A stretch of DNA of 63,992 nucleotides, counting the filler, from Streblomastix strix (Eukaryota), in assembly GCA_008636045.1 (NCBI GenBank). It is 4 parts of 4 records of this genome, joined end to end, with 100 filler letters (N's around TTAATTAATTAA, not from the genome) between each part and the next. Parts side by side here need not be neighbours in the genome. Positions count along the whole stretch, not along the records: positions 48,902 to 63,992 come from SNRW01001035.1; 3 more parts are not named here. One strand, given 5' to 3'. The translations under genes and the position numbers were made by a program. A model generated the notes under the pieces. It did no database searches. It had not been told where the DNA came from and worked only from the letters and a program-made list of their open reading frames with translations. Below, piece by piece: positions 20,401 to 63,992 of the stretch; position 1 is the first letter of the stretch, and every line of letters starts with the position of its first letter.

Positions 20401-22909
20401 TTTCTGGGAATTATCCAGCTTAACAGGTTTGTGTACATCCTTCAGGGATGTTCTATGAAGTACATATCTTAGCTTTTCTGCATACTTCCAAGTCATACGA
20501 TTAATCTTCACTATTACAAAGACAGTCATTGGTTTAATAGTTTGATAATGTGCAGTTGGCAGGGCAGAGATTTCTTTTATCTTTCTCTACACATGGGCAC
20601 ACTGCAATATCAAATACTTACAATTCTTCCAATACTGTTGGACATGTACAACCAGGTGGATGGAATGTAGATGTACAGATGCATCCATAATTCTGATCAA
20701 CAGCTGTGCATTATCCGAGCGAACATTCAAGCGGCCTATAATTCTAAGGGCTATTTCCACTAGTACATGTCTTAGTAGCTCTGCATTATTCTAAAGTAAA
20801 CTATTCATCATCAATTGGACATGTACAATCTTGTGGATGCTATTATATTGTACACAGAGTTGGGCATACTCCAGTTCCAGCTCTGACATCTCCTTCAACA
20901 CATGGACATGTTGTGTTTGGAAGACCAGCAAGATATTCTCCTTACGCACATCTGCATCCAGATGGACTATAATTTTCATTGCATATGCATGTTTCTGGAT
21001 AACTTAATGGATTACTACTAGATGCATTGCATAATGGCTAACAATTTTTCGGTTCATTGTTAATATCACATACTTTTGAAAAGTTGCAATTTGTGGGTGA
21101 AAATTAATTAAACCTGTATTCGTTACAGATACATTCAGGTGGATGAACCTCTTCAGTGCAATATCTCGGACAGAGAGTACCTTATCTTGGATCGTTCATT
21201 GACCTACACGGACACTATGCAGCAGGAATATTGACCAATTATTCAACAGAATCTGGGCATCTACAGCCAACTGGGTGATTGGAAGTTGTGCAAATGCATG
21301 AATCTTCTGTTACTGATGTATCTGAAGGTGCTGTGCATGTCGTGATACAACCATCTGGATGAATTTAATCGTTGCATATACAAGCATACTCCTGATTCGT
21401 GACTTTACAATCTGTAATTTAACATCCATATGGAGTTGGGTCGGTGAAAGTCCCTCCGGTGCATAATTTTGTCTCTCTACAATCTTATATCCCTAAATCA
21501 GTACTATTGTCCAAACTGCATATGCAATCTTGATAATGGTATTACTATGTACAGTAACTTGGGCATAGAAGTCCACCTGATGATGTCGATCGAATGTCTC
21601 CTTCTACACATTGACACCTAGAAGTAGGAATTCTAATTAACTGCGACCAATCTGGTGGGCATTTGCATCCAGTTGGTGAGTGATCATTTGAGCTGCACAT
21701 ACACGAATCGGTTAATACGGTCTATTCAGTTGAAGCTTCACAATCAGATGTGCAACCTTCAGGAATTGGATCGCCTATGCACTTCTTACTTGCTTTGCAT
21801 TATTCGAAATCAAATTCAGCACCACTAATATCATCACATATGCAGTTTTATGGATGATAATCTAATGAACATATACATCCATCACCAGAATAAGATCCAG
21901 AACAAAGGCAGTTAGTTTCAATTGTTCCAAGTTTACATTTGCGAGTAATTGGGCATGTTGAACCTTATCTAGGATCTTCAATTTCATTACAAGCACATGC
22001 TTATGGTGATATTCCAGTCAAATCTAATCCACTACTTGGACAGGTACAACCAACAGGATCAAAACCATTCTTGCAGTTGCATTTGAATGTTTGAAGTGAA
22101 GATTAACAATCTACTGGAGTACAACCACTAGGAGTTGGAGCAGTGAATGTTCCTCCAGTACATAGTTTGGCTGCAAGACATGTTGTTGGATCATAAGAAG
22201 CTGCTGAATTTGTATCGCATATACATCCATCTGGTTTATAATCTTAGGTACATGTACAACCATCTTCAGAAAATTTGTATGAACATAAACAATTTGTATT
22301 TAGTTTGTCTTTATATCCACATTACCGAGTCACAGGGCAGATATTACCTCCTCTTATATCATCACCTGAAATAAATATATGAAGAATAAAAAAGAAAATA
22401 TAATAAATTTGAAATTTATATCAATTAATGCTTAAATTTAAATAGATGATATTTTAAATTACATTATTATAATAATAACAATTAAATTGACCTTATTCAA
22501 TGCACGGGCAAATCTCTTTTGAAATGCCACTCAAAAAATCAGGTATATTGGAACAATTGCAACCTTCTGGCGAATGAACATCAATGCATTTGCAAGTGTT
22601 TAATGGAACTGAAGTCCCAGAACTTTCATTGCAGAAGGGTATTTTTTGTAGTGTTTGATCTGAAAGGCATTGTGCTTTAGTATACTTACCAATTTTGTCT
22701 TCAGGACATTTGCAACCAGTTGGATGCCTGAACCTGGTACAGTAGCAAGACCCATCAACTACAGAAGTGGAAGATAACGCTCCACATGTAGGAAAGCAGG
22801 TCCCCGTGTTGGGCTTGCGCAATGTCTCGGGGCAATTAACGATTGAAATGAAAATGAGTAGCGTTATTAAAATTTAAAACAGATGAAAGTGGTCCAGTCT
22901 TGCCATCAT
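17474..22909 (-). CDS. Large secreted/surface Cys-rich repeat protein (~1770 aa)
   Basis: Signal-like MMARLDHFHLFQILITLLIFISIVNC, then many CxC..HPxGCxC, CPCxxxDPR and CTGGxFTxPTPxGC repeats. One GT-AG intron at 22366-22491. TGA at 17474-17476. Frame continuity was only spot-checked. Confidence 0.85.
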
Positions 22910-29294: not shown

Positions 29295-31432
29295 ATGAAT
29301 AATACATTATCCCAACAATTAATCTGTTAAGTTAGATAGTTAATCACTAATAATATAGCATATTATATTCAATATTAGAAACGAGGTAACTCTAGTGGTG
29401 AAATGATGTCAAATGAAGAGTATTAAATATTCATCGATAATAACAAATCATTAGTTTACGTCACTAATATTTAAATCGTTGATGGAATGGGATCAGATTT
29501 TGCACTATAAATAGAACCTAATGAATTGCTAGCGATAAAGAATTTGAAAGTGATTAATTTTGAGTTTGTTGCATAGATTAATTAGTTGATTAATTAAGTG
29601 AATTTACTACAACAATCAATTGGGACAACTGAATAGGATATTACTGATATAAAGAATGATTTTGATACCATTAATCAATAATTATCACGATAAACACATT
29701 TCCGAGGATATTATTTATTGAATAGAGATCTATAAAATTTACCTAATTCCGCTAATGGTGATTTTTCATTTAGTACTGAAAGCGGAACAGTAAGGATGTA
29801 TGAATAAAATTGGTATAATGGTGGAGATATAGTTCCAGATCAAGTAACGCCTGCAAGTGATGCCACTCCATTAGCTGATGGTACTGCAACTGCAGGAATT
29901 AGCACAGAATATTCACGTGGAGATCATGTTCATCCACTAAACGTAACAACTACCATACCGATTAGCGATTCTGCTAGTGGTTCAGTTGGTACAACTAACT
30001 ATTATGCAAGAAACGATCACTCTCATCCACTCAATATAACAAATTCAATACCTCCACAAGATAGTGCCAGTGGATCAGTTGGTACAACTAACTATTATGC
30101 CAGAAACGACCATTCTCATCCAATTAATGATGAAATTAATGCTTCAAATATCCCAATCGTTAATGGTGTTGGTGCTAATGGAACTTCAGCTTTTTACGCT
30201 AGACACGATCATGTTCATCCATATCAATTAACTAATGATGAAAGTGTAACTGTGACTAAATTTATTAAAACTGGTGGAACAAATAATGATTTATAATTAG
30301 CGGAAGGAACAACTAAATAAATAACAGATTTCAACTCAAGTATTGCATCAGTCATTTAATAAATCAATCCTCATGATGGTATACATTGGTAATGCCTTGC
30401 TGTATTAACAATACCTGATTATAAATCTGTTTGGTCATTCGGATGTACAATTGATATTAATAATTTTTTTATCATGATTTATTTTATCAGCTTAAGTAGA
30501 ATCTTAGAATATAGCTCGGATTTTCTAAGTAATTTATTGCTACACAATTTGGTTCAATAAAAATAGATTTTATGGTATGAGCTGATTTTCCTGAAACATC
30601 ACTTATTTTGAGATTCTACATGAAATCAAATCACATATCCTATTATAAGATTTGGACCATTAATTTATCATAATTTGCTGATGCTGCTGTTCGTGACAAT
30701 TTTGTACTATAAGATAATATAAATTAATATAATATAACTACTTATACATTACCATCTGGTTCATAATTTGCAGGTACCACTATATAAAATAAATTCACTA
30801 ACAATGGTGGTACAATTAATGGTAGTATTTAAATAAATCCTACAGCAACTAGTTATGATGATGGTTTGAGAATATCCAGATCTGAAACAGATACAGATAA
30901 TTCATCGATTTAGTTAAGATGGAGTTGATCATATAACACAGAACTTACTGAAGGATAATGAGCAATATTTACACCATCAAATACGGCAATAATTAATTTT
31001 TATGGTTTATTAATTGCAGTGGCATCTTAAGCTGGCGATAATACAGGAGGATTATAAATATGCACAGATGTAAAAAAATTAACATTTAATGGTAATGGAT
31101 TCGTTGATTTACCAATTGATTAAACAATAAAAGGAATGAAATCATTCGAAAAATTAATATAAGTAATTCCAACATCAGATGGAGCATATAACGAAGCGAT
31201 ACGAATAAGTAGGCCAACAAAAAACTAATGGAGTAATATATAATTTGGTTGTGATCCATATTCAAATTCTGGGTCTTTTGATAATAAATGGTCTATAGGA
31301 ACTTCTGGAAATGATGCTGCAAATCGTCTCGGTTTTGTCATCGTAAAGGCAGGATAAGTAGGTTCATCTAATAGAGGATTATAAATAACCGCTGATGGAA
31401 ACACATTATCTTTCAATGGACGGGTTCTTTGA
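29295..31432 (+). pseudogene. Phage-tail-fibre-like protein with RxDHxHP repeats
   Basis: N-terminal coiled coil; four Y(S/A)RxDH(V/S)HP repeats at 29910, 30003, 30096 and 30195; FIKTGGT; DQTIKGMKSF; two tandem C-terminal modules (xxRISR..GLQIxxD..L(T/S)FNG). Stops and a frameshift in the 3' half. Confidence 0.7.
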
Positions 31433-31879
31433 TTATACTTTATTTTTGAAATAAATGGAAAAGCTGTAACATAATCGATAAAACAATTGTTCAATGAATT
31501 AATTAAATAGCATTTTTAAGATAATAATACAATTAAATATACAATAGAAGCATTATAAAATTTGTTAAAGAATGATGCAAAAGCATCAATCCATCCATTA
31601 CTCTAAGAATTAATGAGAATCAATAAAATGTTCACTAATTATTAACAATAATTACAAAATATAAAGAAAATAGTAGATGAGAAAGATTATTAAAATAAAT
31701 TATTTAATGAATAGGATAAATACTTCAAAAATATATATCTATTAATTAAAAAGTTAATAAATCTAAACTATTAACTATAATAAATAAACAAATACATTAT
31801 TTCTGATGCTATTGAAGAAGAGAAATAGATTTACAAATAATTTCTGAATGATGAGTAATGCAGTAACTGTGTCAGATAC

Positions 31880-32504
31880 TATTCTCTTCAGAAGATACCT
31901 CTTAATGGGGAAAAATTTAATCTAAAATAATTTGATTATTTACATATTAGATATTTTCGATTATATATTTATTTTTATCTTACATTGGATTGTGAGAACA
32001 AAAGCTAAAATGTTATAACATCATATTATATCTACTTTTATCATTTTAATCTAATTCAATCATAAATTTCCATGGAATTACAGTATTCGTGTTAAGTGCT
32101 TAAAATATTTTGAATATCTCATAATCAGACGCATCATATTTATCTCCAATTGTTTTTGCTAAACTATATATATCATCCACTTAATTTATTTCAAATAATT
32201 TATTTTATGAGTTATTTAACATTATAAGAGACAAGATATATCTCCAATGAGTTGCCAATTCCAAATCTTCATTTGATATTGCTTCGTTCAGAAACGTTTC
32301 GATTTATTCTACAGATAATTATGGCCAATGTATTCTTGGTTAATTTTTATCCATATTTCTTTTGTAAAAGAATTGTATAATACAAATTGTTATATTTAAT
32401 GGAACCAATTCTATATCAAAATAACTCCTTAATGTTTTTACTACATTAACTGTATCCATTAATTTATCAGGAATTGATACAGATATAATTGATGTTACAA
32501 AAAT
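31880..32504 (-). pseudogene. Hypothetical protein of the element (5'-truncated)
   Basis: Long open frame ..IPDKLMDTVNVVKTLRSYFDIELVPL..PRIHWPQLSVEQIETFLNEAI..; no family recognised. Confidence 0.45.
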
Positions 32505-32604
32505 NNNNNNNNNNNNNNNNNNNNNNNNNNNNNNNNNNNNNNNNNNNNTTAATTAATTAANNNNNNNNNNNNNNNNNNNNNNNNNNNNNNNNNNNNNNNN
32601 NNNN
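32505..32604. other. Artificial contig linker
   Basis: 44 N + TTAATTAATTAA + 44 N. Confidence 0.98.
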
Positions 32605-33690
32605 GACCATAATCAACTTTGAATAGTGAGGCAATATGTTTTAATAATGCAATTAACGAGTATGTATAAAAATTATAGAATAATATGTTCTCATTAAACT
32701 ATAATTATGGATAAAATTTTGTGTTTATGCCAAACATATTAAATTAATATATTAACTTTTGAATTGATGCATTTCTCTATCACTACTGGATTTTAGATAC
32801 TACAGTTAATGAGCTATATCGAATGATTAGATTAATACGATTATATTGCCCAACATCAAATAACTTCATAACATCAATCGAACCTAAATATTTTACATAA
32901 GGGAATGGATTATCAATAAGGTGCCTATTTGTTAAGTAAATTGACATAAATCCTAATGTAACATTTACAACAACTGATCTATAAACAGTGAATGTACAAT
33001 AATAATCAATGTAATAAATCATTAATAATATTAACACGTTTCCAGTTAGAATTATCAAATAACTATTTGCATTATTTATAGGTGAACGGCAAAATATTTA
33101 TACAGCAGTTGGACGAACTAACTGTTATGGATAATTCATTCCACAATTTGTGATTGATTACTGTTAATAAAACAAAACTTATTGATTTTCTATTCGTATG
33201 TTATTATCTCCAAAACTATACGAATATTTAGTTGATGCATAAGATCTATATGTGGATAGAACGAGTATGGAGCCAATTAATTGGTTATTTTATTATAAGC
33301 TATTAAGTAAATTGATCTTGTAGTATGCTTTTATTAAATTAAACATGATGGTCAAAGTTACGAAGTTGATCTTCCAATATTCTGCCCATATATCGGGAAT
33401 TTTCTGGAATATTCAAAAATGTTGATAATTTGTGTGTCTAATAAATTATAAGGAATAACTCTTAAATAAACAGTTGGTTACGGATTCTTTAACTTATGCT
33501 TTAAATAGAATTTAGTTGATGCACCAGTATTATTGGGATAGAATATGATGAGTCAGTAATGTCTTGTAGGATAGAACAAATCGATGGTTTTAAATTATAT
33601 GATAACTTTGGAAGAAAAGTACCAATGTAATACATGGATATGAGTAATAATTTATTTCTCGAGATATAATTTTAAAGATCAGTCTAAATT
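32605..33690 (+). pseudogene. Putative minor capsid (penton-like) protein, 5'-truncated and frameshifted
   Basis: C-terminal EQIDGFKLYDNFGRKVPMQYMDMSNNLFLEIQF (~33574-33672) resembles the hxhxDxxGxxh...hxhxh tail of Polinton/PLV pentons. It lies directly upstream of a pPolB. Confidence 0.45.
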
Positions 33691-33809
33691 AGTTATATCT
33701 ATTTTGATCTAAACGTCCTATCTGAAGAAAACCTAGCAAATCAAACTATTCAAAATCAATAACAAAAACATTGAAAAAACATTAAAAATAAATTAACTTA
33801 AAGACTAAC

Positions 33810-36650
33810 TCAATGAATATATAGACAAAATTAATTGAAAAAAGAGAGGAAGAAATAATTTTAGTGAATTAAAATACATATAAAATAAATTCATAATTAT
33901 AAGACGTATGTTGTTAAAGCAAAATAAGTGATTAATTATTTTTAAATTGAATCAACATGATTAAGATTTTAAAGAATATCGTAGAAAATAAATAGTAACA
34001 ATAAGCTGATATATATTGGGATGATATATAAATTGAATCGATAATTACATTAAGATTTAACTGATTATCATTCAAATTAATATGAATAAGATTTATAAGA
34101 ATATCGTAGAGAATAATCGTAATAATAAGCTAATGAATTCTGGACTGATTATGTCATTAAAGAACAGGATCCAGTCTATAGAATAATGAATATTGAATAT
34201 GAAGTGAATATTCAATACTAAATAATTGCTAATCAAAATATAGAGATTAATGATTAAATTTTATTGTACGATGGACAGAATGTTTAATGAAATATAAATT
34301 GATGCAGGTATTTTATTATATTTTCTTCTTAAGAGTATGGAACAGTTTATTGCTACAGTTAGAACAGCAAGAAAAGGTTTTGATCTTAAACGTACAATCG
34401 ATTAAATTGAAGCTGAAAGAATATTTAGCAAATTACATTACGATAATGATATTTAGTCATTGACAGAGATTGCAGAGTTTGTTAATGAAGTTTATAAAGA
34501 ATTACACCAATAAGCATTCAAGATTCAATTCAATTTTTGAGTCATTTACGAAGAAAATAAGTACGATTAATATGATTTCGTTTACGTTGATTATGAATAT
34601 ATGTTACCTACAGATACTTGTATACAAGAATATACTCCTAAAGTTATATAATTAGAAGATGATAATGATGAATATGATCAATACATTAAATCTGAGACAA
34701 TAAATATATAGAACTATACATTAGATAGTACATTGTAACGATATATAGCTATCTATTCAATGATGATTAATACAATTAATCTTTACCCATAAATTGTTGG
34801 CGCTAGTATGAAAGAATTAATCGATTTTCATTGTATTGGTCGCAAAAAAGTTATATATAAAAATACAGTAAATAATAATAATTGTTATATTGAAGCAATA
34901 ATAAAAGCATTACATCCTTACACGAAAGAGAAACATTATAAAAGGGAATCAATTATAAACATTAATAGAGAGTATTTAGTTTAAGTATTAGAACAACCAT
35001 TCAATTCAAAGAGTAGAAAAATGACAGATTTATTGAAGACTTTTGATGGATTAGATATAATTAAATACGTTAATATAGTATCATAAAAGTTAAAAGGTAA
35101 CTAAGAAATTTAATATTACGATAATGAACATAAGAGTTATTATAGAGGACTAAAGATAAGGTATTAATGTGAAAACAAAAATGAAAAATAAAAGAGTATT
35201 AAGACTATCGATATATTAGTTGTTGAATCGATTTAGGAAGGAAATAAGATATCACATGCATTTGCAATAGCTAATAAATATGCATTAACTGGATTGAAAT
35301 TTATCCATATTGTAACTCAAAAGCATTCGATCCTAAAGATAATAATTACTTAAGAGACTATGAGAAACACATTATAAAATGTGAAAATAAAGAAGAAAAA
35401 ATTGTTAAGAAAGTTAAATTAGATTATATATAATAACCTTTTGTTCTACATATTATGTAGAATAAAACTTACCAATATCTATTAACAAATGGAAGATAAC
35501 ATGAATTTAAACCTACGCAATACTTTATCATATACGATCTTGAAATAGTTCCTAAAATCGTTAATAAAAAGTTCAATAACCAAGCTATTAAATGTATGAA
35601 CTTTTTCCTTTATCAATTGCAACAACTATTCGTAACAAATAAGGAATTAAGAAAATCTTCTTTAGCTACTAAAATGGAAATGATTTTATAATTTAATGGT
35701 TAAATTAGTTATTTTAGGAAGCTGAGTAAGTTAATGCTGATAGTCAATACATTACTGACTCACACTATTGATGAAACAATTCCTTATTCAATCGAAGTAC
35801 CAATAGTAAGATTCAATAGCTCAAGATTTGATATATCATTAATCATATCATAAATGTAATGTAAAGATTGGACAATCAGTAATTATATTGGTAGCCCTAC
35901 AATAGCAAAACAAGTAATTGTACATCATAAGAAATTGAATTTGAAAGTGAAATTTGTTGATATGTTAACATATCTTTAACCGATGGAATTAAAGTAAGCA
36001 GCAAAAGATTTTAGAGATGGATACGATGATAAGAAAGGAATATTTCCTTATGAAACTTTCAACACTGATAACGTTAATGAAGTACTTAGTAAATCAGAGC
36101 CATTTTCAATGGAAGATTTCAATTCATCATTAAAGAAGACAAAAATTAGTTAGTAGGATTACTAAATTTATCTTGAAGATGCAAAACGATTTAAAAATAG
36201 ATGGGACTATTTACAGTACTATAACGAATAAGATACTTACATAATGATCAAACCATTAATGACTCTAATTAGCTTACAATTTAAATATAAGATTGATATG
36301 TTTAGCTTCATGAGTATGGCTGCATGCTCTAATGCTATCAAATATGCTAAAGCCTATGAGGATTTTGATATTAATGGTGTATATCCTAATTTTGAAGATT
36401 TATCATAGAAATTTTACTTAACAGAGAACTATTGGTAGAGTAAAGTGCGTGGATATCAAGTCTAAGATAAACATTAAAGATGAGATACAACAAATAACGT
36501 TTAAGATAAGGATTTCGATTATTTCAATCAATTATTCAAAGTTTCTAATTGCAGCATTTGTGGACGCAAAATAAAGATTTGGAAATCATTAATTATGCTG
36601 ATAGCTCTTCAATAGCTAAGTTAGTAATTATATATCATAAAAAATTAAAT
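33810..36650 (+). pseudogene. Second protein-primed PolB: N-terminal and exonuclease part only, truncated
   Basis: AFKIQFNF, NNNCYIEAIIKALHP (~34873), PYC..EKHIIKC zinc finger, ExoI YFIIYDLE (35521), ExoII FNSSRFD (~35812), KKGIFPYE (36031), ExoIII YYNEQD (~36217). It breaks at CSICG (~36550-36565). The start is uncertain. Confidence 0.85.
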
Positions 36651-48901: not shown

Positions 48902-49791
48902 TTCACATTAATATTGGAACAGTTAGCATTTAAGTTTTAATTTGTGTTAAATTCTCGATTTTAGTGATTCTGTGAAGTCTCCATATTTCTATATGTAAAA
49001 TGAGGGAATAAATCATTTATATAGTTATTTATATATTTTGTTATACTATATATTGTAAGTCTTGAAGCAATCAATGATGCACAGAGAGAAGAATCGTGCG
49101 TTTTGTAAGAATTAATTTTTATCTCGATAGAACTATTGTTAACCTTTTAATTGTGAATCATAAGTCCTGTATTTTTGTGAGTAATTACAAATTCAAGCAA
49201 AATTAGTATCAAAATGCTGATGTGTAAAAGATGTGGCGAGATACGCGGCTTGTAAATTTGTGCAAGCAATTTATCTGTAGAATAAAAATAAAGAATAGTG
49301 AATTGAGAAACAAAACAATGAAATTATTGATTACTAACTAATGAGTAGGTTCATTTCTAAATTAAGCAATTAGTTATCGAGTAAATTTAGAAGCATATTT
49401 AATTCTGATATCTATCTTTACAGGAATAGCTTATCTTTACACAAAATTAGGTTAATTCTTCTAAATTGATTTGATTGAAGTGCTTTACGTGTTTAATATA
49501 AATCGTTGTTGGAAAGAAATAAAGAACCATATATATTTAACTTTTTTCAATAATCCATTCTAAAATTTTATTCTTAACTTTAAAGTGCAAATGATTAAAG
49601 ATTTGTTAGGAAATAGAAAGACAGAATGGCAGAATAGACTGGGAAAGAGTGGGACGGTGATGTGATAAGGCAAAATAGAATGGGGAAAATTGGAAAGAGA
49701 CTATAAATAAAATTAAAAATGAACTAATAAAATAAAAATCATCTCAAAAAATTTGTTCATCAGAGAAAATATCTTCAAATTTCTTGCGCCG

Positions 49792-51429
49792 TCACCATAA
49801 CATCAGTAATGGAAGAATTACTGTTGCAGTGATTAAGATCAGTGAAATACGTATTGTTCCTGCTGCTTCACATGGATCATCAATATCACATGCATCTCGT
49901 GGATCTCCGCTAGCTAAGCATGGACAATCTGACGTTAATGTCGTAGAAGTTGGTCTTGCACAGTCGGGTTTTGGCTCACAACCAACACGAGGATCATCTT
50001 CAGCAAGACATGGGCAGACATCTTTTGATATACCAGTTGTAGGATGAGCGCAATCTGGTTTTGTCTCACATTCACTTCGAGGATCACTGTCGCGACATGT
50101 GCATTGACCAATTGGAATTCCTACTAACTATTCCGTCTCTTCTGGACAGGTACAATCATCTGGATGGTATTATGATGCGCAAATGCATCCCTATGTTGGT
50201 AATGTACCACTTGTACATGATGCAAAAGGGCACAATTCTCTCTAATCACCCAAAATGCATTTGCACTAACCTCTGTCTATACCAACAAGATCTTCTGCAT
50301 ATTCTGAGCACCAGCATCCATTAGGATGGAATGCCTATGAGCATATACATCCCTAAGCAGGGATGGAATCACTTGTGCATGCAACTGGTGCGCATTCACC
50401 TCTCAGATCGTTTGCTATGCAACCACATCTACTCTTTGGAATATAGCGTAAACCTTATGCAGAATTTGGGCATATGCACTTCTCTGGACTGTATGACTAT
50501 GTGCATTAGCATCCAAACCGATAACTTTCAGTGCTTGTGCAAGATGCTGGTGGCTCAACATAAACTCTTATACCATAAATCATTGGCCATGTTGAATAAA
50601 CTTCAGAAAGCATTTGCAAATTATTCGCTCCTTCCCGATACAAAGATTTGTATGAAACTAATCCTGAGTCTGGATCGGTTTCCCACCCATAATAAATCTT
50701 AAATAAGTTTTCCTATAAGTTCGATGCCCAAACAGTTCCAAATCTTACAATCATCTTCCTAAGTTAAGTCTCAGTAAACCCTGATTCTTTTTCAGCAGTG
50801 TACATCTTTAACTTTGATCCATATGAGTACATAGCATCACTATTTGCGCATGTAGCTTTGCATGAATCGCCGTAATTACCAGTTCCATAGCAACTTAATG
50901 GTGTAACTCCTACTATTCTCTACTATCCATTGTAGATCTAATAACATCCTCTATCCATTTGACGTGTTTCACCATTTGGATTCAATGCAGAGTAAATCTT
51001 TTCATATGTAGGAAGACAGTTAAAGTAATGAAGAGCGCTTGGTTAAATGTCTTCTCCGTAATATACAAGAGTATTTGCAGCTTCCATCTCCCAATATCTT
51101 TTATTATAGTAATCATAAACATTACGGCACGAACTCTGGTATTAATTATAATTGTAAGATTCGTATACTGCGAAGTTGGAAGCTTGTGTAAATGTGTCAG
51201 GAATGACAGAAAAGTTTTCTGTTTGCCAACTTCCACCCCATGGATTCACTCCATCATCCGTATCAACATCAATAAATCCTTCATTTATTCTTAAATCTCT
51301 GGTTACATAAGTACCTTCCATATACCAATTTGGAAAGCGATACATATCAGCATTTAGCATTATCAGAAGAGAAACAATAATAAAAAACCTGTTTAATATA
51401 AAATAGAGAAAGTGAAGAATTATGATCAT
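49792..51429 (-). CDS. Surface protein: signal peptide, degenerate papain-like domain, Cys-rich repeats, GPI-like tail (545 aa)
   Basis: Single-exon reading: IPDTF, QYQSSCRNVY, PSALHYFNC, RGC, CKATCANSD, MIVRFGTVW, KIYYGWE; then HP..CxC and CPC..DPR repeats; ends AGTIRISLILITATVILPLLMLW-TGA. Confidence 0.85.
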
Positions 51430-52049
51430 GGTATAAGGAAAATAAAAACATTGATAAGATTAGTTTTTAATAAAAATTAAGAGTTTGCTCAATTTCTCCT
51501 CAATCAAAAGCTATTGTGAGCAATTTAATTTGATATTTCCTTTTTCATAGTTTTTTCATCTAAATTATTTATGTTAATCATACATTAGTCCCTGTATAAG
51601 CGAGTTGCAAGCTTTCTGATCAGGCCCACAGATGGGTAAAATTTTTGATCCCCTATCATTAGTTTCTTTAATTTAAAACCTATATATTTCATTACCTACA
51701 GTATCTTAGCAATTTGTGCAGTACTTATACGTTATTTACCAATTTGTCTTATTTTCCACTTTTTCATATGAGCTTCCCATTAAAATTCACTTTCATGCTC
51801 TGATTTGTTTCGTTACTTATTTGATTATACTAACCTATTTATTAATATATCTGAAACCGAATATTCTTCACTCTTAATTACAAATTTTATGTTTAGATTT
51901 TAAAAATTTTTTACTAAATTATCATTATTTTTCAACTCTGATTTTATTAAGCTGTTTTTCATTTTATAGTCGGAATTCTATTAGAATTAAAATTTGTGAT
52001 ATTCAGCGTCTTATTCTGGAATAGTTGTTTATCCTTCATTTCTTTGTGG

Positions 52050-55000
52050 ATTATGTCATCCAACTTGCATAAAGCGAGCTGATCTCGTTTGTTGCACATA
52101 AGCGTACTCAATGCGGCCCTGATCGCTCAATAATGAACGAGACAGAAGATACTGACACGTGAGCGAGATTGCAGACTGAATTACAGACAAGAAAAGGCAT
52201 AAAATTTACGAATATCATTATGGCGATGAATCGAGCTCGAGTGATTCGGCTGTTCGACACCGAAATTTTAATTATGCTTGCTGAATCAATTTATTATATC
52301 CAAGTATAGCATATACGATAAGGATTACGAGGACTAGATAAAGTAATTTTGTAGACGACTGCTGGACAATGAAATGAAAGAGGCGAGACTCTATGACCAG
52401 GAGCATTTAATTATAAAAAATGTGAAAAAGAACCAAAACACAGAGGATATAAAGCTGTCACAATCGTATAAATTTGCGATAGGCGAGATAGGGGGAACAT
52501 ATCTAGAAGAAGGTGACCTATTTGGTACAGGGGGACGGTGATGAAGGCTGAGACGAGCCCTTCTAGAAACTTCTAGAAAGGTTGAACGAGCCGCTCAGGC
52601 AATAAGGAGCAAAGACTGGAAGGAAGAATAACAATAAACAAGGATAGTAGACGCATGAAAGATCGCGTTAGAGCCCTAGAATGCAAATGGCCGAAATTTT
52701 GAGCAGAAAAAATGATAGTGCAAGCATCAACATTTAAGCTGCTGGGTTATTTGAACAGATTGTTCAAATTTTGAGACTTGAGTAAATTTTGATATGCAGG
52801 ATCGTACTGGAAAGTTGTTACGCCAAAAGGCAGGACAAGGCTGGAACAAGGCGATTAAAAAGTAGATATGAAGATTGGGCTTACTGATGCATAAGAGGCT
52901 TTACTGGTTGCAACGAAGAATGGACTAGGCGGTCTGGATAACATTGAGCAAATACCGCAAGCATACTCAATGCAGTTTAATGGTACAAACGCAGTGACGC
53001 AGCTGAAAGAACTTGTCAGTGCTCCAAGAGAGCTGAGAGGAGTAGTAAGGAATTGTATTCTGCCGGTGGACGTATTCTCTAATGATAGTATTGATAGTAT
53101 CAAGAGGTATCTGGACCTTAAGAAGGTTGATTAGTTGCATTTCCCATATCAACAAGGGCAGTACACGTACCTGCAGTCTTTAATCCAGTAACCTTATATG
53201 ATATTGTATTCGTACCAGCAATTCTAGCCATTCCAATTATTCCAGCAATTTAGGATGTAGCAGACGCTGTATGCGATGAGTTGATTCAATTACGGAAGGG
53301 GAGCTGCAATGGGAAGAAGATTCCAGATAAGAGGACGTGGATGACGAGACAGGGGAGCCTTCAATTCTAATTTCGCACCATTAGGAAGGTAGTGAGAGAG
53401 TGCTTGGGTGGATATTTAGAGTGGAGAAAGTGAGAGGTGAATGATAGTGGGGAATAAGGAGTGTAAATGAGTGAGAGAACAAGTGTTAAGGATGAAGAAT
53501 CGTTAGTGTGACGGTTTTAACAGTACAATAAACCGTACCTCAAAGCAAATATGATTGGAGCCTGCTTATTACTTTATCTTAGAGCTTACGAAAAAATAAA
53601 TATGGACAAATCTATTAAGATAGGATGCTACGCAAAATGAAAAAGCCAGGAGAGCAGGATAATACTTGCGCCGTAGCGAAGAGTAATTTATTTCAATGGA
53701 AACAAGGAATAAGCGGAATAGCTGGATCAATTAATAAGAAAAGAATTTAATTAAAAAATAATTAGAGTGATTAATAATTAGGAAGTCCTATTGTGGAACG
53801 GAACATTTGTAATTAAGAAGTCGGGAGGAGGACTGAGGAGAATAATGGATTGTCGACCACTGAACACGTAATTGAAAGCTCAATATTTTACAATAAACGA
53901 TCTAAATAATATATTGGAAATATGGAAGAAGGACGATTGGGCATGTTCTATGGACAACAAATCGGTGTTTTATCATTTGACAGTGATTGGGGAGTTGGAT
54001 AAGTACTAAACATTTATACGCAGGGGGATTCGTAATACGTAAGTGGGAATACTGTTCAGAATTTTAATAACATCAAGGACCTTTGCGAGGATAATCTAAA
54101 TTAAATCAGATGGAGTGAGAAGTCGGAGTCCAGTGTGAATTGCAAATTATGCAGACGACATTCTGTTCCGGACACAAGATCGACAATAGTTGAAGAAAGA
54201 AGTAAAGTAGATAGTGGAGGAGTTTCGGAAGTATGGACAGGTGATCAATGAGAGTAAGAATAGTCTGAAGCCAGAGTAACAATTTATGTTCCTGGGATGG
54301 ATATTTAACTCTACAAGAATGAAAATTTAATTGACAGGCGATAATAGGAAGCAATTGAAAGCAATAGTTCAAAGATAAATAAAGTTAATAATGGACTAAA
54401 GACTTTAAAGGATTAAAAGCGTGACAAGTTTGGTTGGTTAGCTTCGATTTTTCATTCCGTAATTTAGACGAGGAGGACTACATCTATAACAAATAAATAA
54501 ATATATGAGCAAAGCTGCGAGAGTAATGGGTTTGACAAGCGAAATGATAGTAACGAAGAAGTGTTTGACAGAGTCATATTGATGGATGAGCCAATTGGAG
54601 AACAATAAACCAAAGATGATAGATAAAATATAGAAGCAAATAATAATTTAGACGGATGCATCAAATTCAGGATGAGGAACAAGTGAGATTAAGGATAAAG
54701 TGCGAATCGAAAAGACATACGGATAATGGGAAGCGGAGATGGAGAATTCAAACTTGCGAGAGATCTTGGCGATATACAGAGCAGAACAACTGCTGAAAGA
54801 ATAAATTGCAAAACAATAATATTGTTGAATAATGATAGAAACAGATGAAACAACAGCATGTTTCTCAATAGTAAAAGCAAAGTCAAAATGTTATTTGAAG
54901 AAAGCGATAGATTCGTTTTTTAAAAGTAGATGAGGAAAATGGATGGATATTAACAATATGAAATATCGCTGCGAAATTAAATAAAGATGTGGACGCATTA

Positions 55001-56460
55001 TTAAGGTTATCGATGGCAGGGGATTACTCAATAAGGAAGGAAGTATTAGAGGTTGTTTTGAAGCATTGGAAAGTAGAGATAGCAGTGGATTTATTCGCAA
55101 CAAGAAATAATTCTAAACATAAGAGATATTATACATTGGAAAAGGACAAAAAAGCAGAAGGATGAAACTAAATGAGAGTCTCTTGAGAGGAGCAGTTTGC
55201 ATTGATACACCCACTAATACCAATAATTAGTAGGGTAGTAAGGAAATTAATAGAGGAGAGAGCTTAAGGAATAATGATAGTACCGCGTTGGCCAGGATAA
55301 GTCTGGTGGACATCGTTAAATGAAATAACAGTGAGAGAGAAGAAATTGGGAGAGAGTGAGAGGGTGTTGGAGTGCGGACTGATGATGAGAAATCTGAAAG
55401 TTCGTCCGGGGAGGATATTGGCTTTAGAGGCAAACGGGGATAAGATGGAGCAAGATTATTTCAAAATGCATTGATAACATCCGTTTTATCAAGAAATGCA
55501 ATTAGAACAATAATAGATAACTGGAATAGAATTTGAAGAAGGCATGCCTGCGCGCTATCAGCCTTTTGGAAGAATAAGAGGAGGAGAGAAATGAGTGTGG
55601 AGTAGTCAAAAATGGTAAAATAACCATATATTGTAATAGTATAATATATTATAGAGAAAAATAAGGATTAGTCGGACGCAATAGTATTATAAACATGGAC
55701 TTTAGTATCATCAATGCTTGAATTAGTAAGAAGTGATGAGAAGGACTTAAAAAATAAAGTAATAGAATAAATATCTTTAAAACTAGTTGTAAATACAAGG
55801 AAAGTTATTAGAGAAATTACAATCAGGAAAATGGAGCAGCTGCTTGAATATAAAGTGAGACATAGTATATAAAGATATGAGGAAAATTTAACAGTTAATA
55901 AGTTAATAAGAGTGGTCTTTATTATATTTATGGTTTATTTAATTTTTATGATAATAAGAAATATTAAGAGATATGCTAATTATAACACAAATAGAATAAG
56001 AAATAATATTAATAAGTACCAATTTGCTTAAAGACAAGAGGGAAAAAGTAGTAGTAACTTTGAAAAGTATAAACAATAAAGCAGTTTGCCTAGTTACAAG
56101 ATTTTTAGCCTGGAATAGGAACTGAAGTGTCAGAATTATTGATAAAAATTCCTTTTGGAGAAATTGAAAAAAAAAATGATCATTATCACTAGAACAGTGA
56201 AAAAAAATAGGTTCATACAGTAAATAATTGAACAGGAATTGATAAGAAATATTCAATAACAACTATAAGAAAGGTGGCAATATCGACAATTCAAAACAAT
56301 TATAAAAAAAAGATAGAGATAGATTGATGGAGTAGGCATAGAAAATCTGTGGATACAGTAAGAGAGAATTACGAAATGATTAACAATAATAGCATAAGGA
56401 AAGCGCTATCCGAATGAGTCTCGGCTAGAGAAGAGGGTAAGGCGAGTGAGTAAATAGAGT
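52050..56460 (+). mobile_element. DIRS1-like tyrosine-recombinase retrotransposon (gag, RT, RNase H, methyltransferase-like, YR), decayed
   Basis: FVIKKSGGGLRRIMDCRPLN; YADD at 54148-54159; TDASNSG*G at 54652-54678; SNLREILAI; DLFAT at 55088, IHPLIP, PRWPGQVWW; YR-like AVCLV and TTIRKVA (56259). Many stops and frameshifts. Confidence 0.88.
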
Positions 56461-56479
56461 GAGGTTTATTTTTTATACA

Positions 56480-58760
56480 ATATAATATTAAACTATTCTC
56501 CTCCACTTCTCAATATTCCAATATAAATTCCACCAATAATTTCTTATAGATATTTAGATTCTCTTTCTGAATTATATTGATGTTTAGATTATTCACCTTT
56601 AAATTTGGAATTAATAAGGGAATGCGAAGAATATCTGTAAGATATTGATTTATTTTCTAAGTATATATACACCTATTAATTATTAATAAGCTTGAAATTA
56701 GAAGATGATTATGATGATTGAACAAATTGAATATATGTCTTACACTCTATAAATCGAACAAATGTCAGATTATTATGTAAGTTTTGTCCAATGAACGCAA
56801 ATGCACCTTCAATGCCAATTTGTTCAGCATCAGTTGGATGAACATTGATTATGCATTTACAATTCTAGAATATTAGATCTGTAATATAGATTGGGAGAAG
56901 AAAAGCATTGTCTCAATTAATATATATGACTGATGAAATTACTATATTATTTTATATTGATTCTTCCTCTAATTCGAATGAAAGTGACGAAGACGAGAAA
57001 ATATTTATATGCTTGAAATTAAATAACAATCCATAATTATGGTATTTTCCAATGAAATAATTTCTGATACACATTCCATCTAAATCAAAGCAGTGCTAGT
57101 AATTTTAATTTAATCATCTGATACTTCAATTAGTTATATATAATTTAATTCTGTTATAAATTGAAATGTTTATTTAAATCCCCATGAAACATCCGAAACA
57201 GGATCATATTAACTCATAATACAATGTTCTATCTTAAAATTAATTACTATTTCATATTTTTTGCATAATTTATTACTCATTAATTTTATAATGCTTTTCT
57301 GTTCATATTCAGAAGGAAGAACATAATATATTTTTTTGATATAAATATTTTGTTCTACTCCTTTAAATTTTATATTTCTTATCTTTTTCCATTATGTTAG
57401 ATCAGTTAAAATTATTTGCCCTTAATTCTTGAATTTCAGTTATTCATAACAACAAACATTCAACCATTGTTCTTCATATACGTCGAATTATTAAATTACC
57501 TGCTTTATATTCGAATAGATTTGCTATATCAGTTCCAACTTATACAACAAATGTGTGATTGATTCTTTATCTATCTTCAATATTAGCAGGAATAGAATCT
57601 GCAGTTCATTTAAGAGTAAATACTATTGTTCTTCCAAAATTAAATGTCGAACATCGTAATTATATTTTCCGATATTTAACAGAATCAACAGTAAAATATG
57701 AATTTGCTGATAAATATATAGAATCATTGAAATATGGTTCCATAAATTTCAGCAAATCCAGATCATTAAGTATTTCAGGATGAGTGGAGGAAATTTATTC
57801 ATATTTAGTTCCATATAAAGCATTACTCTTATTACATTATTTATTGATTATGCCAAATAAAAATATTCTGTCCGGCTTTAAATATACAAGATTCTTATAG
57901 TATACAAATATATCCCTTCCGAACTAACCAGCATCATTAAGTTAGAATTGTGCTCTTGGTCCAATTTCAAACTAAAATTGAACTTTTTCAAGTTTTAAAT
58001 ATATTCTTCATCCTCTTTCATTTACATTTCCAGTTCCAATTGCGACACATTCTTACATCAATACGTCATTTTCAATCAGAAACTATTCAAAGAAAAATAT
58101 CTATACTTAAATATCACCTCCATTTGGAGCACTAAATTACTTCAATGTTGATTATTAAATGGAAGAATTATCTCCTTGAATTTAAGCAATTATTTCGCCA
58201 TCTTTCTAAGCTGTGCATTTCTGCAATATAATAGAGTAAGATAATTCAAATTTACTATACTCTTCAATAACTATAAACATTCCTCCACCAGATTAATCTA
58301 TATTTTTGCAATTTTCAAATATAAATTATTCTTTAACTAATATTTCTCTATCTTCAATTAAAGTGAGAAATAGTCTTTCTCATTCAAAAATACTTGTGTA
58401 ATTTCTTAAATTCACTTAATTACCTTCATTTAATCCAGAACATCTAATCAATGTTATTTAATTTATTTCTATTTCTCCTGAATTAAAAATGAAATGTAAT
58501 CCTCCACCATTTCTATCTGCTTAATAGTTTGTAAGTTTAGTTCCAGTTAATGTTTATTTCAATACACTTTGACAATTGATTAGAATTTTACCTTCGTTTA
58601 TTCGTTTGCAATCATTGAAAAATAATTCATTAGTTTCAATATTTCCATCATTTGATATATCAATATATGCTCCTCTTCCCTATCCAAATTATGCTTGTTT
58701 AGTTCCGTCTTAATTTTTTATTCATAGTTGGTAAATATCATAAATTCATCAGGAATAAAT
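56480..58760 (-). pseudogene. Pectin-lyase-like beta-helix (GGG-hydrophobic repeat) surface-protein pseudogene
   Basis: Repeats GRGAYI, NGGGLHF, SGGGMFIVI and NDAGQFGRDIFVY, with frameshifts and stops. Confidence 0.65.
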
Positions 58761-59099
58761 ACTAACAAAAATATATTCCTTTTATTTAAATAGATAATCA
58801 ACTCTTTTTAGTTTCTACAAATTTTTAAAGGTCAGACAATACTACAGTATATATCTGTTCAAATAAATTTAATACATCAAATATATTTGAAACATTTACT
58901 ATGGAATAGGAGAGCAATAAGATTAGTTTCAAGAATTGATCCATAATGATATATACTTATTAGAAATCAATCCATAACTTAAAAAGAAGAAACATAATGG
59001 GAGAAAGCACTAATGATGATAGAAAAAGTCATGAATTTACCAGGAATATGTACAAAATATAATTATAGTTATGTATTAGACAGCCATCTTGGGCTATTA

Positions 59100-60925
59100 T
59101 TTGGTTTGATGAGCTATCCGGGACCGCCAGGGATGGCCCTAGACCATTAGTACACAAAATTAAGATCGAGATATCTCTTCGGATGTAAATAATGGATAGT
59201 CCCTCCAACATAAACAAACCCACAGAGCTAGATTACACCTTACCCGAACTAGAATTGAAGCTGAATTTTGAATGTTGATTTCATGAGAATGTTTACAAAC
59301 CCATTTTCAGTTCCGAAAGGAATGTAACATCAATAGGTTGCAAGAGAAGCAGCATAGGTTCATCATAAACCGAGAGAGACTTTTCCAATAAATGGAAATG
59401 CAAGAAAGATAGCGTTTTCTAGGGACTGCATAGTTCGGGGTTAAGTAGCGATTACTGGAATTAAACAAATATATATCCTGAAAAAACATTCTACTTAACT
59501 CCTGCGAACTCCAATTCGTGAACCAAAAGTTGAAAAAGGAGGATGAATGATTCCTGTATGAAGTAAATCCACAAGCACTAATACTTCTGCTGTCGCAAAC
59601 TAGAACTTGAGAGAAGACAAATAGCACTGTCAGCCAAGAGAGAAGCTCAGTCATCATTGGACTAATGGAAATTCAGAACTGAATAAAGTAGGAGATTCCT
59701 ATACGAGAAATCATTCTAAGGATAATAATAGAGAAAATGTTGCAACTTCAACCGTAATTGAGAATGTGGGAAGAGACAATTCGTTATCTTGAGATGTTGA
59801 AACTGGTTAAATAAGTGAAATTTATACTAAAAGAGCTTTTCTACTATTCAAAAACGAGGACTGAGAAAAGAGATTGTAAGAGAAACTAAGAATTTGTCCG
59901 TTCTCAGGCTCAAGAGAAGAGGAAATAGCATATATGGAGAAAATAGAGGTAGAATTGCGAGAAAACATAAAAATAAATATAATTAAAATACGCTGAAATG
60001 CAAAACCAAATAATAATTCTGAAATATCGGAGGAAATGGAAGAAAATTCAGTATATGAGTTCATTGAAAAGAAGAGATTTAATCGATTCATTCTAAGATG
60101 CAGGGAACAGATCAAGTGAGAGATTTGATAAGGAAAGGAGACTGGACAACAATTCAAGATCTAAAGTTGACTTTTCACCGCCAAATAGTATATCCACCGA
60201 GCAAACCTTACCAAGCATTAGAAGTAATAAGGAAAGTTTACTAATATAGAGAAATTCCGTTTGGGACACAGAATTCACTATTCTTTTTCGCGCAGGCATT
60301 AGCAATAGTCCTATTTAGAACATGGAGAGTGTCGGATTATAGAATCCTTAACTATGTAGACGATCTGCTCATCCTACATTAGAACAAAGAAAGATTGCGA
60401 GAATAAACTTTGACAATAATAAGAATTTTGGAAGCATTTGGGTGGATAATAGCTCAAGAAAAATGCGAAACAGAACCAAAACTACATCTTAACTTCTAAA
60501 GATGTGCTTGGGACTTGAAAAGGATGTACATAAAGATGACAGTCCTAAGAAAACAGGAACTACGCTATTAATTAAGGAGATTTATCAGCCTAACATAGAG
60601 ACAAATTCCGATTAAGATAAAATATATAGCATAGATAATACGCAAGTTGAATTTTCTAAGAATCCAAGTAAGAGAAACTTCCTTTTACTTAAAACTAATT
60701 GACTCAGCAAAAACGAGGGCTCTGAAGAATAAAGAGTGGAAAGAGAATATGATTCAGCCTAAGGAAATCCTTCAAGAGCTTTTTTAGTAGTGGGGAGCAA
60801 TCTCGAGAAATTAGGAGGTGACTTTAGATGTTAGAATTCCAGAAGCAGTAATGGTATCAAACTCATCTCCGAAGGGTTGGGGAGTGACTCTGGAGCTACA
60901 AACAAGGGATATTTTAGTCCAATAT
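59100..60925 (+). mobile_element. DIRS-like retrotransposon fragment (RT and start of RNase H)
   Basis: GKWKKI, YQYREIPFGTQNS, RILNYVDDLLI (YVDD at 60353-60364), VMVSNSSPKGWG; truncated at ~60925. Confidence 0.85.
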
Positions 60926-61413
60926 AAATAAATGATATAATAAATTAGTTAATTTAATGTTCTGTAAATCGTTTTTATTAATTATTTATGAAAAAAATTA
61001 AAATATTTTTCATTAAATATGATATTACTGATATTGTATAAAATATACAATCAAATCACAAAGTATTTTAATAAAAATAAATGCAAAATATACTTAAGAT
61101 CAAGAAAAATATATCTAATTTAGTTGAAGGAAAATAAAAAATATAAATATAATATAAATAAGTTGTTAAATATAATATAAATAAGTTGTTATATTTAAAG
61201 TTTTTCCTGAAAATTAATTATAAAATACAAATTTAAATAAAAATTAAAAATAAAATTATATTTGAACAAGAGATAAAAAATTACAAAATAAAAACTTATT
61301 AAAACAATTTCTATTATCAAAAAAAAGTAAAATAAAAAATAAATATATCATTGAAAATCATATTTAACAGATATTTCAACGAATTTAAATTAAAAAATAA
61401 ATATTTTGATAAA

Positions 61414-61989
61414 TCAATGTTCAATTTTAATTGATAGAACATTCAGAATATCTTCAAACAGACGAGAAAACGTTTCCTGCTATACCCAAAGCTAATTTTC
61501 AATTATTCTTAGAAAGGTAAGTTCTGATTCATTTATGACTCTTATTGGTATAGAAAATATTCGAGCGAAGCAGCTGTTCTTGAATGCGTAATCTCGATGA
61601 ATTTTTATCGTATCAATGAAAAGAACAATGAGAAAAGTTCCAATGTTGTTAGCTTTCAGAAGTTGAACACCTTTCAAAGACTACTTCTGTATGAATCTTT
61701 GGAGTAGAGCTATCGCAATGATGCATTCTTCAACACTCAAACAAATATTCACCCTCAAGAAATTGAGGAATTGTACCAAATTCGGAACAGTGAGATTCAA
61801 GCTAGTACCCAGAATCTAGTCCTTCAGAGTCTTCAAGAGCTCTTGGGCTACCAATTCAAAGTAGATCTCGGCTACATTGGCATAAAGTAAGTTGTCCAGA
61901 GTGCAACCGTTACCAGCAATATCGGATTTTTCAAGTTTAACTATATTTTCTTTGATTGGACTATAGTTCATTACTTGTGTAATGCTCAT
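61414..61989 (-). CDS. Cyclin, Pho80/Pcl (P/U-type)-like, 191 aa
   Basis: Intact intronless ORF: ECIIAIALLQRF..NIGTFLIV..KIHRDYAFKNSCFARIFSIPIRVINESELTFLRIIENQLWV. Confidence 0.82.
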
Positions 61990-62422
61990 ATTTGAATTTA
62001 TCTGTAAAATAAATAATAAAACAAAAATAATAAATTTGTATTAATATTTAAATAACATTTAATTAGAAAATCAGTTTTTAATTTTATTTCGTCGTGTGAT
62101 GAAAAATTAACATTTAGAATAGTTACAAATAAATAGGATAATGCTAAAATTCAATAAATTGTTCATAAATCTGTACAACAACCTTTTGAAGAGCAGAATA
62201 AGATAAGAGTTTTAATTAATGGAAAAATGGATCAACGTAACTTCATGAATTATTAGTATAACTTTTATTTTAATAGTTTGGCAATTAGTTAGAAATTTTG
62301 ACGATATCACATGATATTTATTTGCTTATTTTATATTACTATTTATTATAACATGAAATGACTAATATTGTTACAAATACTATCCAGCGAGAAAATTTCT
62401 AGAAGGTTTATTATTTTCATAT

Positions 62423-63586
62423 TCAAAATGTTAAAATAGGCATTAAAACTACCAATGTTACTAATCCCCATAATATCCTAATATTACTTCCTGCATCTGA
62501 TTAATCATCTTCTTTATCTACAGTTTCCTCTTCCTTTTCATCATCTTTCTCTTCATCTTTATCTTAATCTTCATCATCATCATCTTCTTCAGTCTATTTC
62601 TTCTCTTCCAACTCTTCAACTTCACTCGCTTCTTTACTGAGAATAATCTCCCCATATACATTCAACAGTTCTCTATCAGGCTAATTGAATGGAAGCACAT
62701 CCAATAAGAATCTGTGGTCCCAATATGTCTCTGTTCCATTCTCCACTATCTGGTCTTCTCCAACTATAACAATCCAGTCTTCTTCATCTTGATATTTCTC
62801 CCATCCAATAATCAGCGCTGTCGATTGTTACGGATTTGGATTGTTTTTGATCTTGTGCTGAAATGTAGCAAATATTGGGCCTGTCCGGACTATGTATTTT
62901 TTAAGCAGTGTTTAATTTGTTGTGTAGAAATGACCGAACTTCAGACCTTCAAATTATTTATCAATTTCGGTTGTGCCATCATCGCATAGAGTAGGTTTAG
63001 CTGGTGTTGTAGCCGTGCTGTCATCTAAATATCCTTTCATTTTGGCTTCATTCGAAATACAATCTCTCGAAACAACACCTTCGAGTTGAAAAGATAATCG
63101 TGTGTGATTCATTGTCATGTTGCATCCTTCAAGTTATGTGTTGAATTAAAGATCTTCTGCTCCATATCGATAGTACAATGGCAGACTCTCAATTGCATAG
63201 ACAACAGATGGCGCAATATCAATTTATGCATAAGCATACAGTGCATAACCTAGAAGCGCATAGTCTGCAGATTTAATTCCGCGAAAAACTCCAATGCATT
63301 TTGAAGAGTCGAATTTATGATATTTGCTCATTTCTAGTGTTTTAAAATCTTCTCTAGGTATGCAAGTGTAATTACGTGTTTTTTCATCCTTCTCGCCAAG
63401 CCACTTGATGTTGTTGATATGAACAAACTTTTCCGTTTTACTCTCGGCTTCAACTTTCCTAATAATATCTAAACTCAAATAATCATCTACAGTAATTTCA
63501 TAATCCTCAAAAAATATCTGTGTGTCCTGTCTAACTTGTCCTCGCACAAACAAAATGAAAAATATGATCAGAAGCGAATATCTCAT
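62423..63586 (-). CDS. Surface protein: signal peptide, catalytically dead cathepsin-B-like domain, acidic stalk, GPI-like tail (387 aa)
   Basis: MRYSLLIIFFILFVRG; EGCN, EGVVSRDC, PTLCDDGT, LKKYIVRTGPIFATF, STALIIGWE..DWIV; D/E-rich linker; ends AGSNIRILWGLVTLVVLMPILTF-TGA. Confidence 0.88.
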
Positions 63587-63992
63587 TGAATGTACAGGTA
63601 CGATATTCTAATTTTTTAAAAAAATAATATAAAATTAATTAAAACAAAATTATTATAATTTAAGTTATCAATTTGATTTATTGAAATCGTACAAATATGA
63701 ATTTTATAAAATTTATTAAAACAAAAGAATATTATTGTAATAAATGATTTAAATTTTAAAATGAAAAAGACATTATATCAATATATATTCAATTCAATAT
63801 TATATACTGTAAGTTAGCAGAGGAATACACTTATTTGTAAATCAGCAAAATTTGTGAAACCGAGAAAGATAGAAAAATTGATAAAAACATTAATTTTATA
63901 ATTATTTTAGAATACTGAAAATGATACTATGAAAATAAAATATATTTCGAAAATATAGACATTCCTGGTATTGAGCGTTGACGCTCCAATTT

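Follow-up and report, generated by a model that had tools for sequence, protein, structure and literature searches.

Dead papain-type proteins are common; as a rule they are soluble, number one or a few copies, and keep a near-intact cleft. Plasmodium SERA5 (PMC4671257, PMC5500368), Trichobilharzia TrCB1.6 (PMC7054455) and the Pachyrhizus seed protein 2b1n are, as far as their descriptions go, soluble products of single or few genes carrying one or a few substitutions. Scabies mites have five SMIPP-Cs, which share 31-93% identity and occur in the gut and faeces of the mite (PMC5956821). Expansion of cathepsin B itself is reported in Monocercomonoides exilis, which has 44 cathepsin B genes and, within that account, no cathepsin L (PMC6759080).

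Here we compare with these systems a gene of Streblomastix strix and the family to which it belongs. S. strix is a flagellate living in the termite gut. The window is the whole stretch of DNA that was analysed, 63,992 nucleotides made up of four parts of four records of assembly GCA_008636045.1 joined with filler, of which positions 48,902 to 63,992 are from SNRW01001035.1.

The target gene and the layout of its protein

62423..63586, minus strand: target ORF, a single intact exon of 387 amino acids in genetic code 6
63539..63586, minus strand: likely signal peptide, residues 1-16, judged by eye
63383..63538, minus strand: N-terminal extension, residues 17-68, at the expected propeptide site
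62633..63382, minus strand: predicted papain-fold (C1A) domain without catalytic residues, residues ~69-318
62495..62635, minus strand: acidic low-complexity stalk, residues 318-364
62426..62500, minus strand: C-terminus resembling a GPI signal, judged by rule

The target frame is open only when TAA and TAG are read as Gln (10 such codons in the table 6 translation), and is interrupted at codon 121 under table 1. Its sole close database match is EZS28_018578 (P0001), an S. strix hypothetical protein of equal length that is 98% identical. One contig from each of two runs, X2 and X3, spans the gene mostly or wholly at ~97% identity with no joint listed, and these contigs end close to the ends of the gene. 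One loose end looks like a cDNA adapter; neither feature was taken as evidence of expression, as transcription cannot be shown by contigs. At window position 63614 the X2 contig has ~14 unexplained bases between the 5' flank of the gene and the adapter-like tail, which may be a library-preparation artefact or a strain difference.

The dN/dS comparison that the earlier note proposed gave pN/pS of 0.04-0.07. Over the domain there are 17.5 synonymous changes against 4.5 and 2.5 non-synonymous changes relative to the X2 and X3 alleles, with no stops, and the pN/pS values are 0.071 and 0.039 (binomial p<1e-8; the comparison skipped a 58-base repeat in the stalk). The target gene is under strong purifying selection. 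We note that two of the four domain amino-acid changes in the X2 allele, V100I and D108N (window positions 63289 and 63265), both fall inside the former active-site helix; the changes are too few to test.

The N-end of the protein is basic, followed by a hydrophobic core of 12 residues with small residues at -3/-1, and most full-length family members have a comparable N-end. The 52-residue extension that follows sits in the place of a propeptide, with no Propeptide_C1 match in a Pfam search; it carries a conserved F/D/I/P pattern, has lower pLDDT than the domain, and ends where mature C1A chains begin to align by VIA, at about residue 69. In the stalk 29 of 47 residues are D or E, and this acidic character is specific to the target and without counterpart as a family trait, most members having Cys-rich stalks. 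The protein has five N-glycosylation sequons. Its last 19 residues are hydrophobic (KD 2.16) and the protein ends there, without a cytosolic tail; the small residues S363, D364, A365 and G366, 21-24 residues before the C-terminal end, are omega candidates.

By rule, the target combines the features of a GPI-anchored protein, namely a signal peptide, a small omega residue, a short spacer, a hydrophobic C-end and no cytosolic tail. A hydrophobic tail after small residues is present in 20 of the 41 database members scanned, many of the others being partial models, and PIG-K, PIG-M and PIG-W are annotated in S. strix (PMC10703272 supplement). Judged from these sequence features, the target is likely to be GPI-anchored at the cell surface. 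The earlier note had described an intact ORF, a signal peptide, an acidic stalk and a hydrophobic C-tail; all four stand, the ORF under genetic code 6 and the signal peptide as judged by eye.

Several other segments of the window were noted. A cyclin-like gene (61414-62058, minus strand; PF08613, E 1e-4) lies directly downstream of the target and has its own contig in X2. A reverse transcriptase fragment at 60098-60991 on the plus strand (RVT_1, E 1e-10) is probably a degraded retroelement, and the region 52100-55700 looks similar in composition. Broken ORFs at 1067-4524 and 29295-36483 resemble by eye the genes of integrated DNA viruses or polinton-type elements (polymerase-like and repeat fibre-like), and have no significant Pfam match.

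A diversified family in Streblomastix strix

49792..51429, minus strand: second family member in the window, 545 amino acids

This second protein has an N-terminal hydrophobic segment, a dead papain-type domain, a Cys-rich DPR-repeat stalk and a hydrophobic tail. Its Smith-Waterman score against the target is 84 over an alignment that covers the same domain, and none of 2000 shuffles reached this score (maximum 66). Searched against 1.84 billion representatives, a profile built from these two sequences recovered 39 proteins (E<=1e-3); word-based homologue searches gave 1, 1 and 4 proteins. S. strix is the source of 31 of the 32 proteins checked among the 39 (30 of them looked up individually, of which 29 are from S. 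strix), and two further S. strix members came from a separate word-based search. Every named member is annotated as hypothetical. P0025, a protein of 1382 residues with DUF11/SpaA repeats, was rejected as a chance match to an unrelated repeat protein.

No member from outside S. strix was found among the named proteins of the two-sequence profile search and two metagenome scans, the first of which yielded no related sequence among 113 candidates. One of the 208 candidates in the second scan proved to be an unrelated bacterial-type gene read with table 11, with no tblastn match to the family proteins. Among publications other than the genome paper on S. strix and the supplement on M. exilis, a literature search gave no description of the family.

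The earlier note, which had not recognised a large family, had asked how many paralogues exist. After discounting three close pairs that are possibly alleles there are at least about 30 distinct genes, a second one of which lies beside the target in the window, a count that rests on a fragmented assembly in which some gene models are partial, fused or allelic. The family alignment (A3) has 39 rows, 34 of which cover the GW column, and omits P0001, P0006, P0021, P0025 and the cluster members P0040 and P0044-46. The median pairwise identity is 22%, and the tree has long terminal branches and well-supported subfamilies, with the target in a group of 15 rows and the 49792-51429 paralogue in a group of 12. 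Compared with each other, the subfamily profiles give a match of 99% probability (E 5e-18). The 49792-51429 paralogue belongs to a subfamily that retains an extra Cys pair, both residues of which are present in 12 rows and neither in 21; this perfect co-occurrence counts as one event because it maps to a single subfamily split.

Stalks vary from absent to more than 400 residues long, usually with many Cys and with DPR repeats, and P0006 and P0046 have two dead papain domains in tandem. In P0040 and P0046 the dead papain domain is fused to GGAI-type repeat regions with a weak match to a Chlamydia PMP (E 0.28), a structure that may reflect either genuine adhesin-like fusions or the merging of gene models. 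The window also contains, at 17474-22909 on the minus strand, a very large Cys-rich repeat protein (an ORF of 1408 amino acids plus upstream exons) with a signal-like N-end. Its repeats are of the CxC/DPR type, like the stalks of the dead papain family, and it has no Pfam match and no papain-type domain by tblastn.

The predicted papain fold and its rebuilt cleft

The earlier note had proposed a papain fold, and because the single target protein matches neither Peptidase_C1 in Pfam nor any C1A chain in the PDB, this claim required independent proof. A 33-row family profile matched cathepsin K in the PDB (E 4e-5), followed by cathepsin B chains with weak E-values, and chains that are C1A by name make up 33 of the 36 PDB rows of that search. 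PF00112 was matched by three of 39 members at E<=10, one of them above the gathering score. An AlphaFold model made with the family alignment has a pLDDT of 87.8 and a pTM of 0.87; a single-sequence model with a pLDDT of 30 was discarded. The best Foldseek matches are the cathepsin B structures of Trypanosoma congolense (5fpw) and T. brucei (3hhi), at E 5.6e-7 and TM ~0.4; there are 141 chains at E<=1e-3 and, among the matches listed, all are C1A. By VIA, residues ~69-318 align to whole mature C1A chains with Z ~10-12, the best being Der f 1 (Z 11.8, rmsd 5.0, 193 aligned residues), with cathepsin B at 10.3-10.5. These structural matches are modest (TM 0.3-0.5, rmsd 4-6 A), at 11-16% identity to cathepsin B-type C1A peptidases. 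Because the family profile, the model, Foldseek and VIA concur, the predicted C1A fold of the target is well supported. The sequence landmarks listed in the earlier note are also present in order (GC154-155, GVV170, PTLCDDGT198, GPI236, IIGW259 and W271), a set that exceeds chance.

The description as cathepsin-B-like holds for C1A; the B type is likely only, as Foldseek ranks cathepsin B first, the HMM search cathepsin K, and VIA gives a tie among all C1A types. Derivation from cathepsin B is nevertheless the likely origin because of the Foldseek ranking and the cathepsin B genes of M. exilis. In the target a loop of 25 residues between Cys176 and Cys201 falls where the occluding loop, with the His-His pair of cathepsin B, would be expected. 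Position 186 of the alignment is His in 8 of 16 rows and Tyr in the target.

Three segments locate the former active site.

63287..63298, minus strand: Cys97 (putative Cys22-type, partner Cys155) to Val100 (putative nucleophile slot)
62822..62824, minus strand: Ser255 at the catalytic His slot, from the profile alignment to cathepsin K NHAVLVVG
62762..62776, minus strand: Trp271-Val275, where Asn-Ser-Trp is lost, followed by a long predicted beta-hairpin

Cys does not occur at the Val100 slot in any of the 33 rows that cover it, 26 of which have V, L or I. The Ser255 slot, six residues before the glycine of GW/GY, holds no His in any of the 34 rows that cover it; in one row a His stands at the adjacent position. 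Motifs of the CGSCW, HAV and NSW types are absent from all 43 sequences scanned, and the target has Ser94 at the putative oxyanion Gln slot. The earlier note's observations that QxxCGSCW and NSW are missing from the target, and that Ser replaces the catalytic His, are thus upheld, and the Cys/His dyad that it named as evidence to the contrary was looked for and is absent in the target and the aligned family members.

Assignment of the nucleophile slot depends on Cys97. By the numbering of papain, the nucleophile is Cys25 and a disulfide joins Cys22 to Cys63 (PMC9712828), and cathepsin K, as printed in the profile search, has Ser49, Cys56 and Cys63 downstream. Downstream of Cys97, the SPQ-like APS motif is 28 residues away and the Cys56-type position 37; the expected spacings are 27 and 34 for Cys22, and 24 and 31 for Cys25, so that Cys22 is the better match. 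Cys97 and Cys155 are jointly present or absent in 30 of 31 rows (both in 27, neither in three, mixed in one apparently chimeric model), and the joint loss represents one event because it is confined to a single clade of three members. On these sequence relationships, what most likely survives of the active-site motif is Cys97, as the Cys22-type half of a disulfide with Cys155, and the nucleophile slot would therefore be Val100. We infer this register because the fold tools gave ranges without residue pairs; against it, counting without gaps from where mature cathepsin B begins would place Cys97 itself near the nucleophile slot. Asp108, whose surrounding YALxG resembles WAFG, was considered as the slot and ranked below Val100 on spacing; neither residue is Cys, and the alternative register has no Cys in any aligned row.

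The surroundings of the site are altered too. Cathepsin K, as printed, has 39 residues from GP to GW; the target has 25, and the family 5-26. The target also has an extra hairpin ahead of GC, and in most rows the length of the Cys176-Cys201 loop is between 13 and 27 residues. The putative disulfides are Cys97-Cys155 and Cys176-Cys201. Conservation across the family is found mainly at Cys, Gly, Pro and core positions and at no His, which argues against a new catalytic set. On the alignment and the model, the domain is without catalytic Cys, His and Asn, and appears to be non-enzymatic.

A putative surface repertoire and its relation to known systems

We consider it probable that the target is a dead papain-fold protein from a diversified S. 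strix family, acting as a GPI-anchored surface binding or coat module on a stalk. The signal peptide would direct the protein to the ER, where GPI transamidase would cut near D364/A365 and exchange the hydrophobic tail for a lipid anchor. The acidic stalk would distance the domain from the membrane, a task that the Cys-rich repeats would perform in most paralogues. The fold would be retained as a scaffold braced by the two disulfides, with loops around the old cleft that differ between paralogues; we therefore propose that the family is a repertoire of varied binding faces, comparable to the variable surface families of other protists. Its most likely partners would be surface molecules of the bacteria that cover the cell, or proteins of the gut lumen. 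Streblomastix has vane-like cell extensions bearing numerous filamentous ectosymbionts (PMC2717939), and because of these bacterial docking is the most interesting candidate role. That expanded cathepsin B genes gave rise to a variable GPI-anchored receptor coat recognising and docking the ectosymbionts on the vanes is put forward tentatively, as possible and still doubtful. If true, it would point to proteins on the host side by which ectosymbionts may attach to a termite flagellate, and would mean that a mutualist has built a variant surface family on a dead protease fold.

Location inside the cell is unlikely. In this reading the target, GPI- or tail-anchored on the lumenal side in endosomes or lysosomes, could be a cargo receptor or part of a membrane lining; C1A ancestors are lysosomal, and five sequons together with an acidic stalk would suit a lysosomal lining, but a sorting motif would need a cytosolic tail, which the target does not have, and long Cys-rich stalks and at least 30 variants are more typical of surface families. 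Cys-rich families with many variants typify surface proteins, the Cys-rich proteins of Giardia being an example.

A role as regulator or decoy in a protease system is quite unlikely. By binding inhibitors of the cystatin type, substrates or active cathepsin B paralogues, the anchored dead domain would protect or position the active enzymes of the cell. There is precedent in the Cys29Gly cathepsin B paralogue of Trichobilharzia, which binds cystatin (PMC7054455), and ordinary cathepsin B genes are annotated in S. strix (PMC10703272 supplement). However, the Trichobilharzia paralogue keeps a near-intact cleft, whereas in the target the Gln, Cys, Trp, His and Asn-Ser-Trp positions are changed and a segment of at least 14 residues is altered too. 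The loops also vary among paralogues of 22% identity, and would therefore be a poor fit to one conserved ligand.

That the protein is still an enzyme, with Cys97 as nucleophile or a new catalytic set in the rebuilt cleft, is very improbable. In 29 of 33 rows Cys97 is conserved, and it stands just ahead of the predicted central helix, but His is absent at or near its slot in 33 of 34 rows, the five His residues of the target are not conserved, the spacing of Cys97 fits a Cys22-type disulfide, and three members have lost Cys97 and Cys155 together. Finally, the notion that these genes are relics of a cathepsin expansion drifting to pseudogenes, to which the long terminal branches and many partial gene models might point, is largely refuted for the target gene by its intact 387-codon ORF, its low pN/pS, and structural Cys and Gly residues that are invariant across paralogues of 22% identity.

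The family can be set beside several described groups. With cathepsin B-type C1A peptidases (5fpw, 3hhi) it shares the predicted papain fold over the whole mature domain, a signal peptide, the GC, GVV..C, GP and GW landmarks and the putative Cys22-Cys63-type disulfide, and like the cathepsin B genes of M. exilis it is an expansion in an oxymonad (PMC6759080). Unlike those peptidases it is without the catalytic Cys, His and Asn, the oxyanion Gln and a recognisable propeptide, and it has a shortened GP-to-His segment, inserted hairpins, a stalk and a GPI-like tail. The SMIPP-Cs provide a close parallel, as both groups are multicopy and lineage-specific with inactivated catalytic sites and oxyanion Gln, and with altered propeptide and disulfides (PMC5956821); the S. 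strix family differs in its at least 30 members, 22% median identity, stalks and membrane-anchor signals, and in belonging to a non-parasitic protist. Like SERA5 (PMC4671257, PMC5500368), TrCB1.6 (PMC7054455) and 2b1n, it would have a papain fold without catalysis; unlike them, it has the whole cleft remodelled and uses the domain as a module on variable stalks.

The VSPs and HCMPs of the metamonad Giardia form large families too, with variable members, Cys-rich repeats and a membrane segment at the C-terminal end (bioRxiv 10.1101/2022.03.07.483299). This likeness is a works-like comparison with no homology claimed. Unlike the S. strix family, Giardia VSPs have a short cytosolic tail and are not known to have a papain-type head.

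Inactive C1A proteins are thus already known, and the S. strix family stands apart in its size, in how far it has diverged and in the modular use of stalk and anchor: a fold eroded past Pfam detection, in at least 30 copies at ~22% identity, on interchangeable stalks with anchor signals. The family offers a concrete candidate surface repertoire for a flagellate that carries many attached bacteria (PMC2717939), and a route by which an expansion of digestive enzymes can be recycled into surface proteins.
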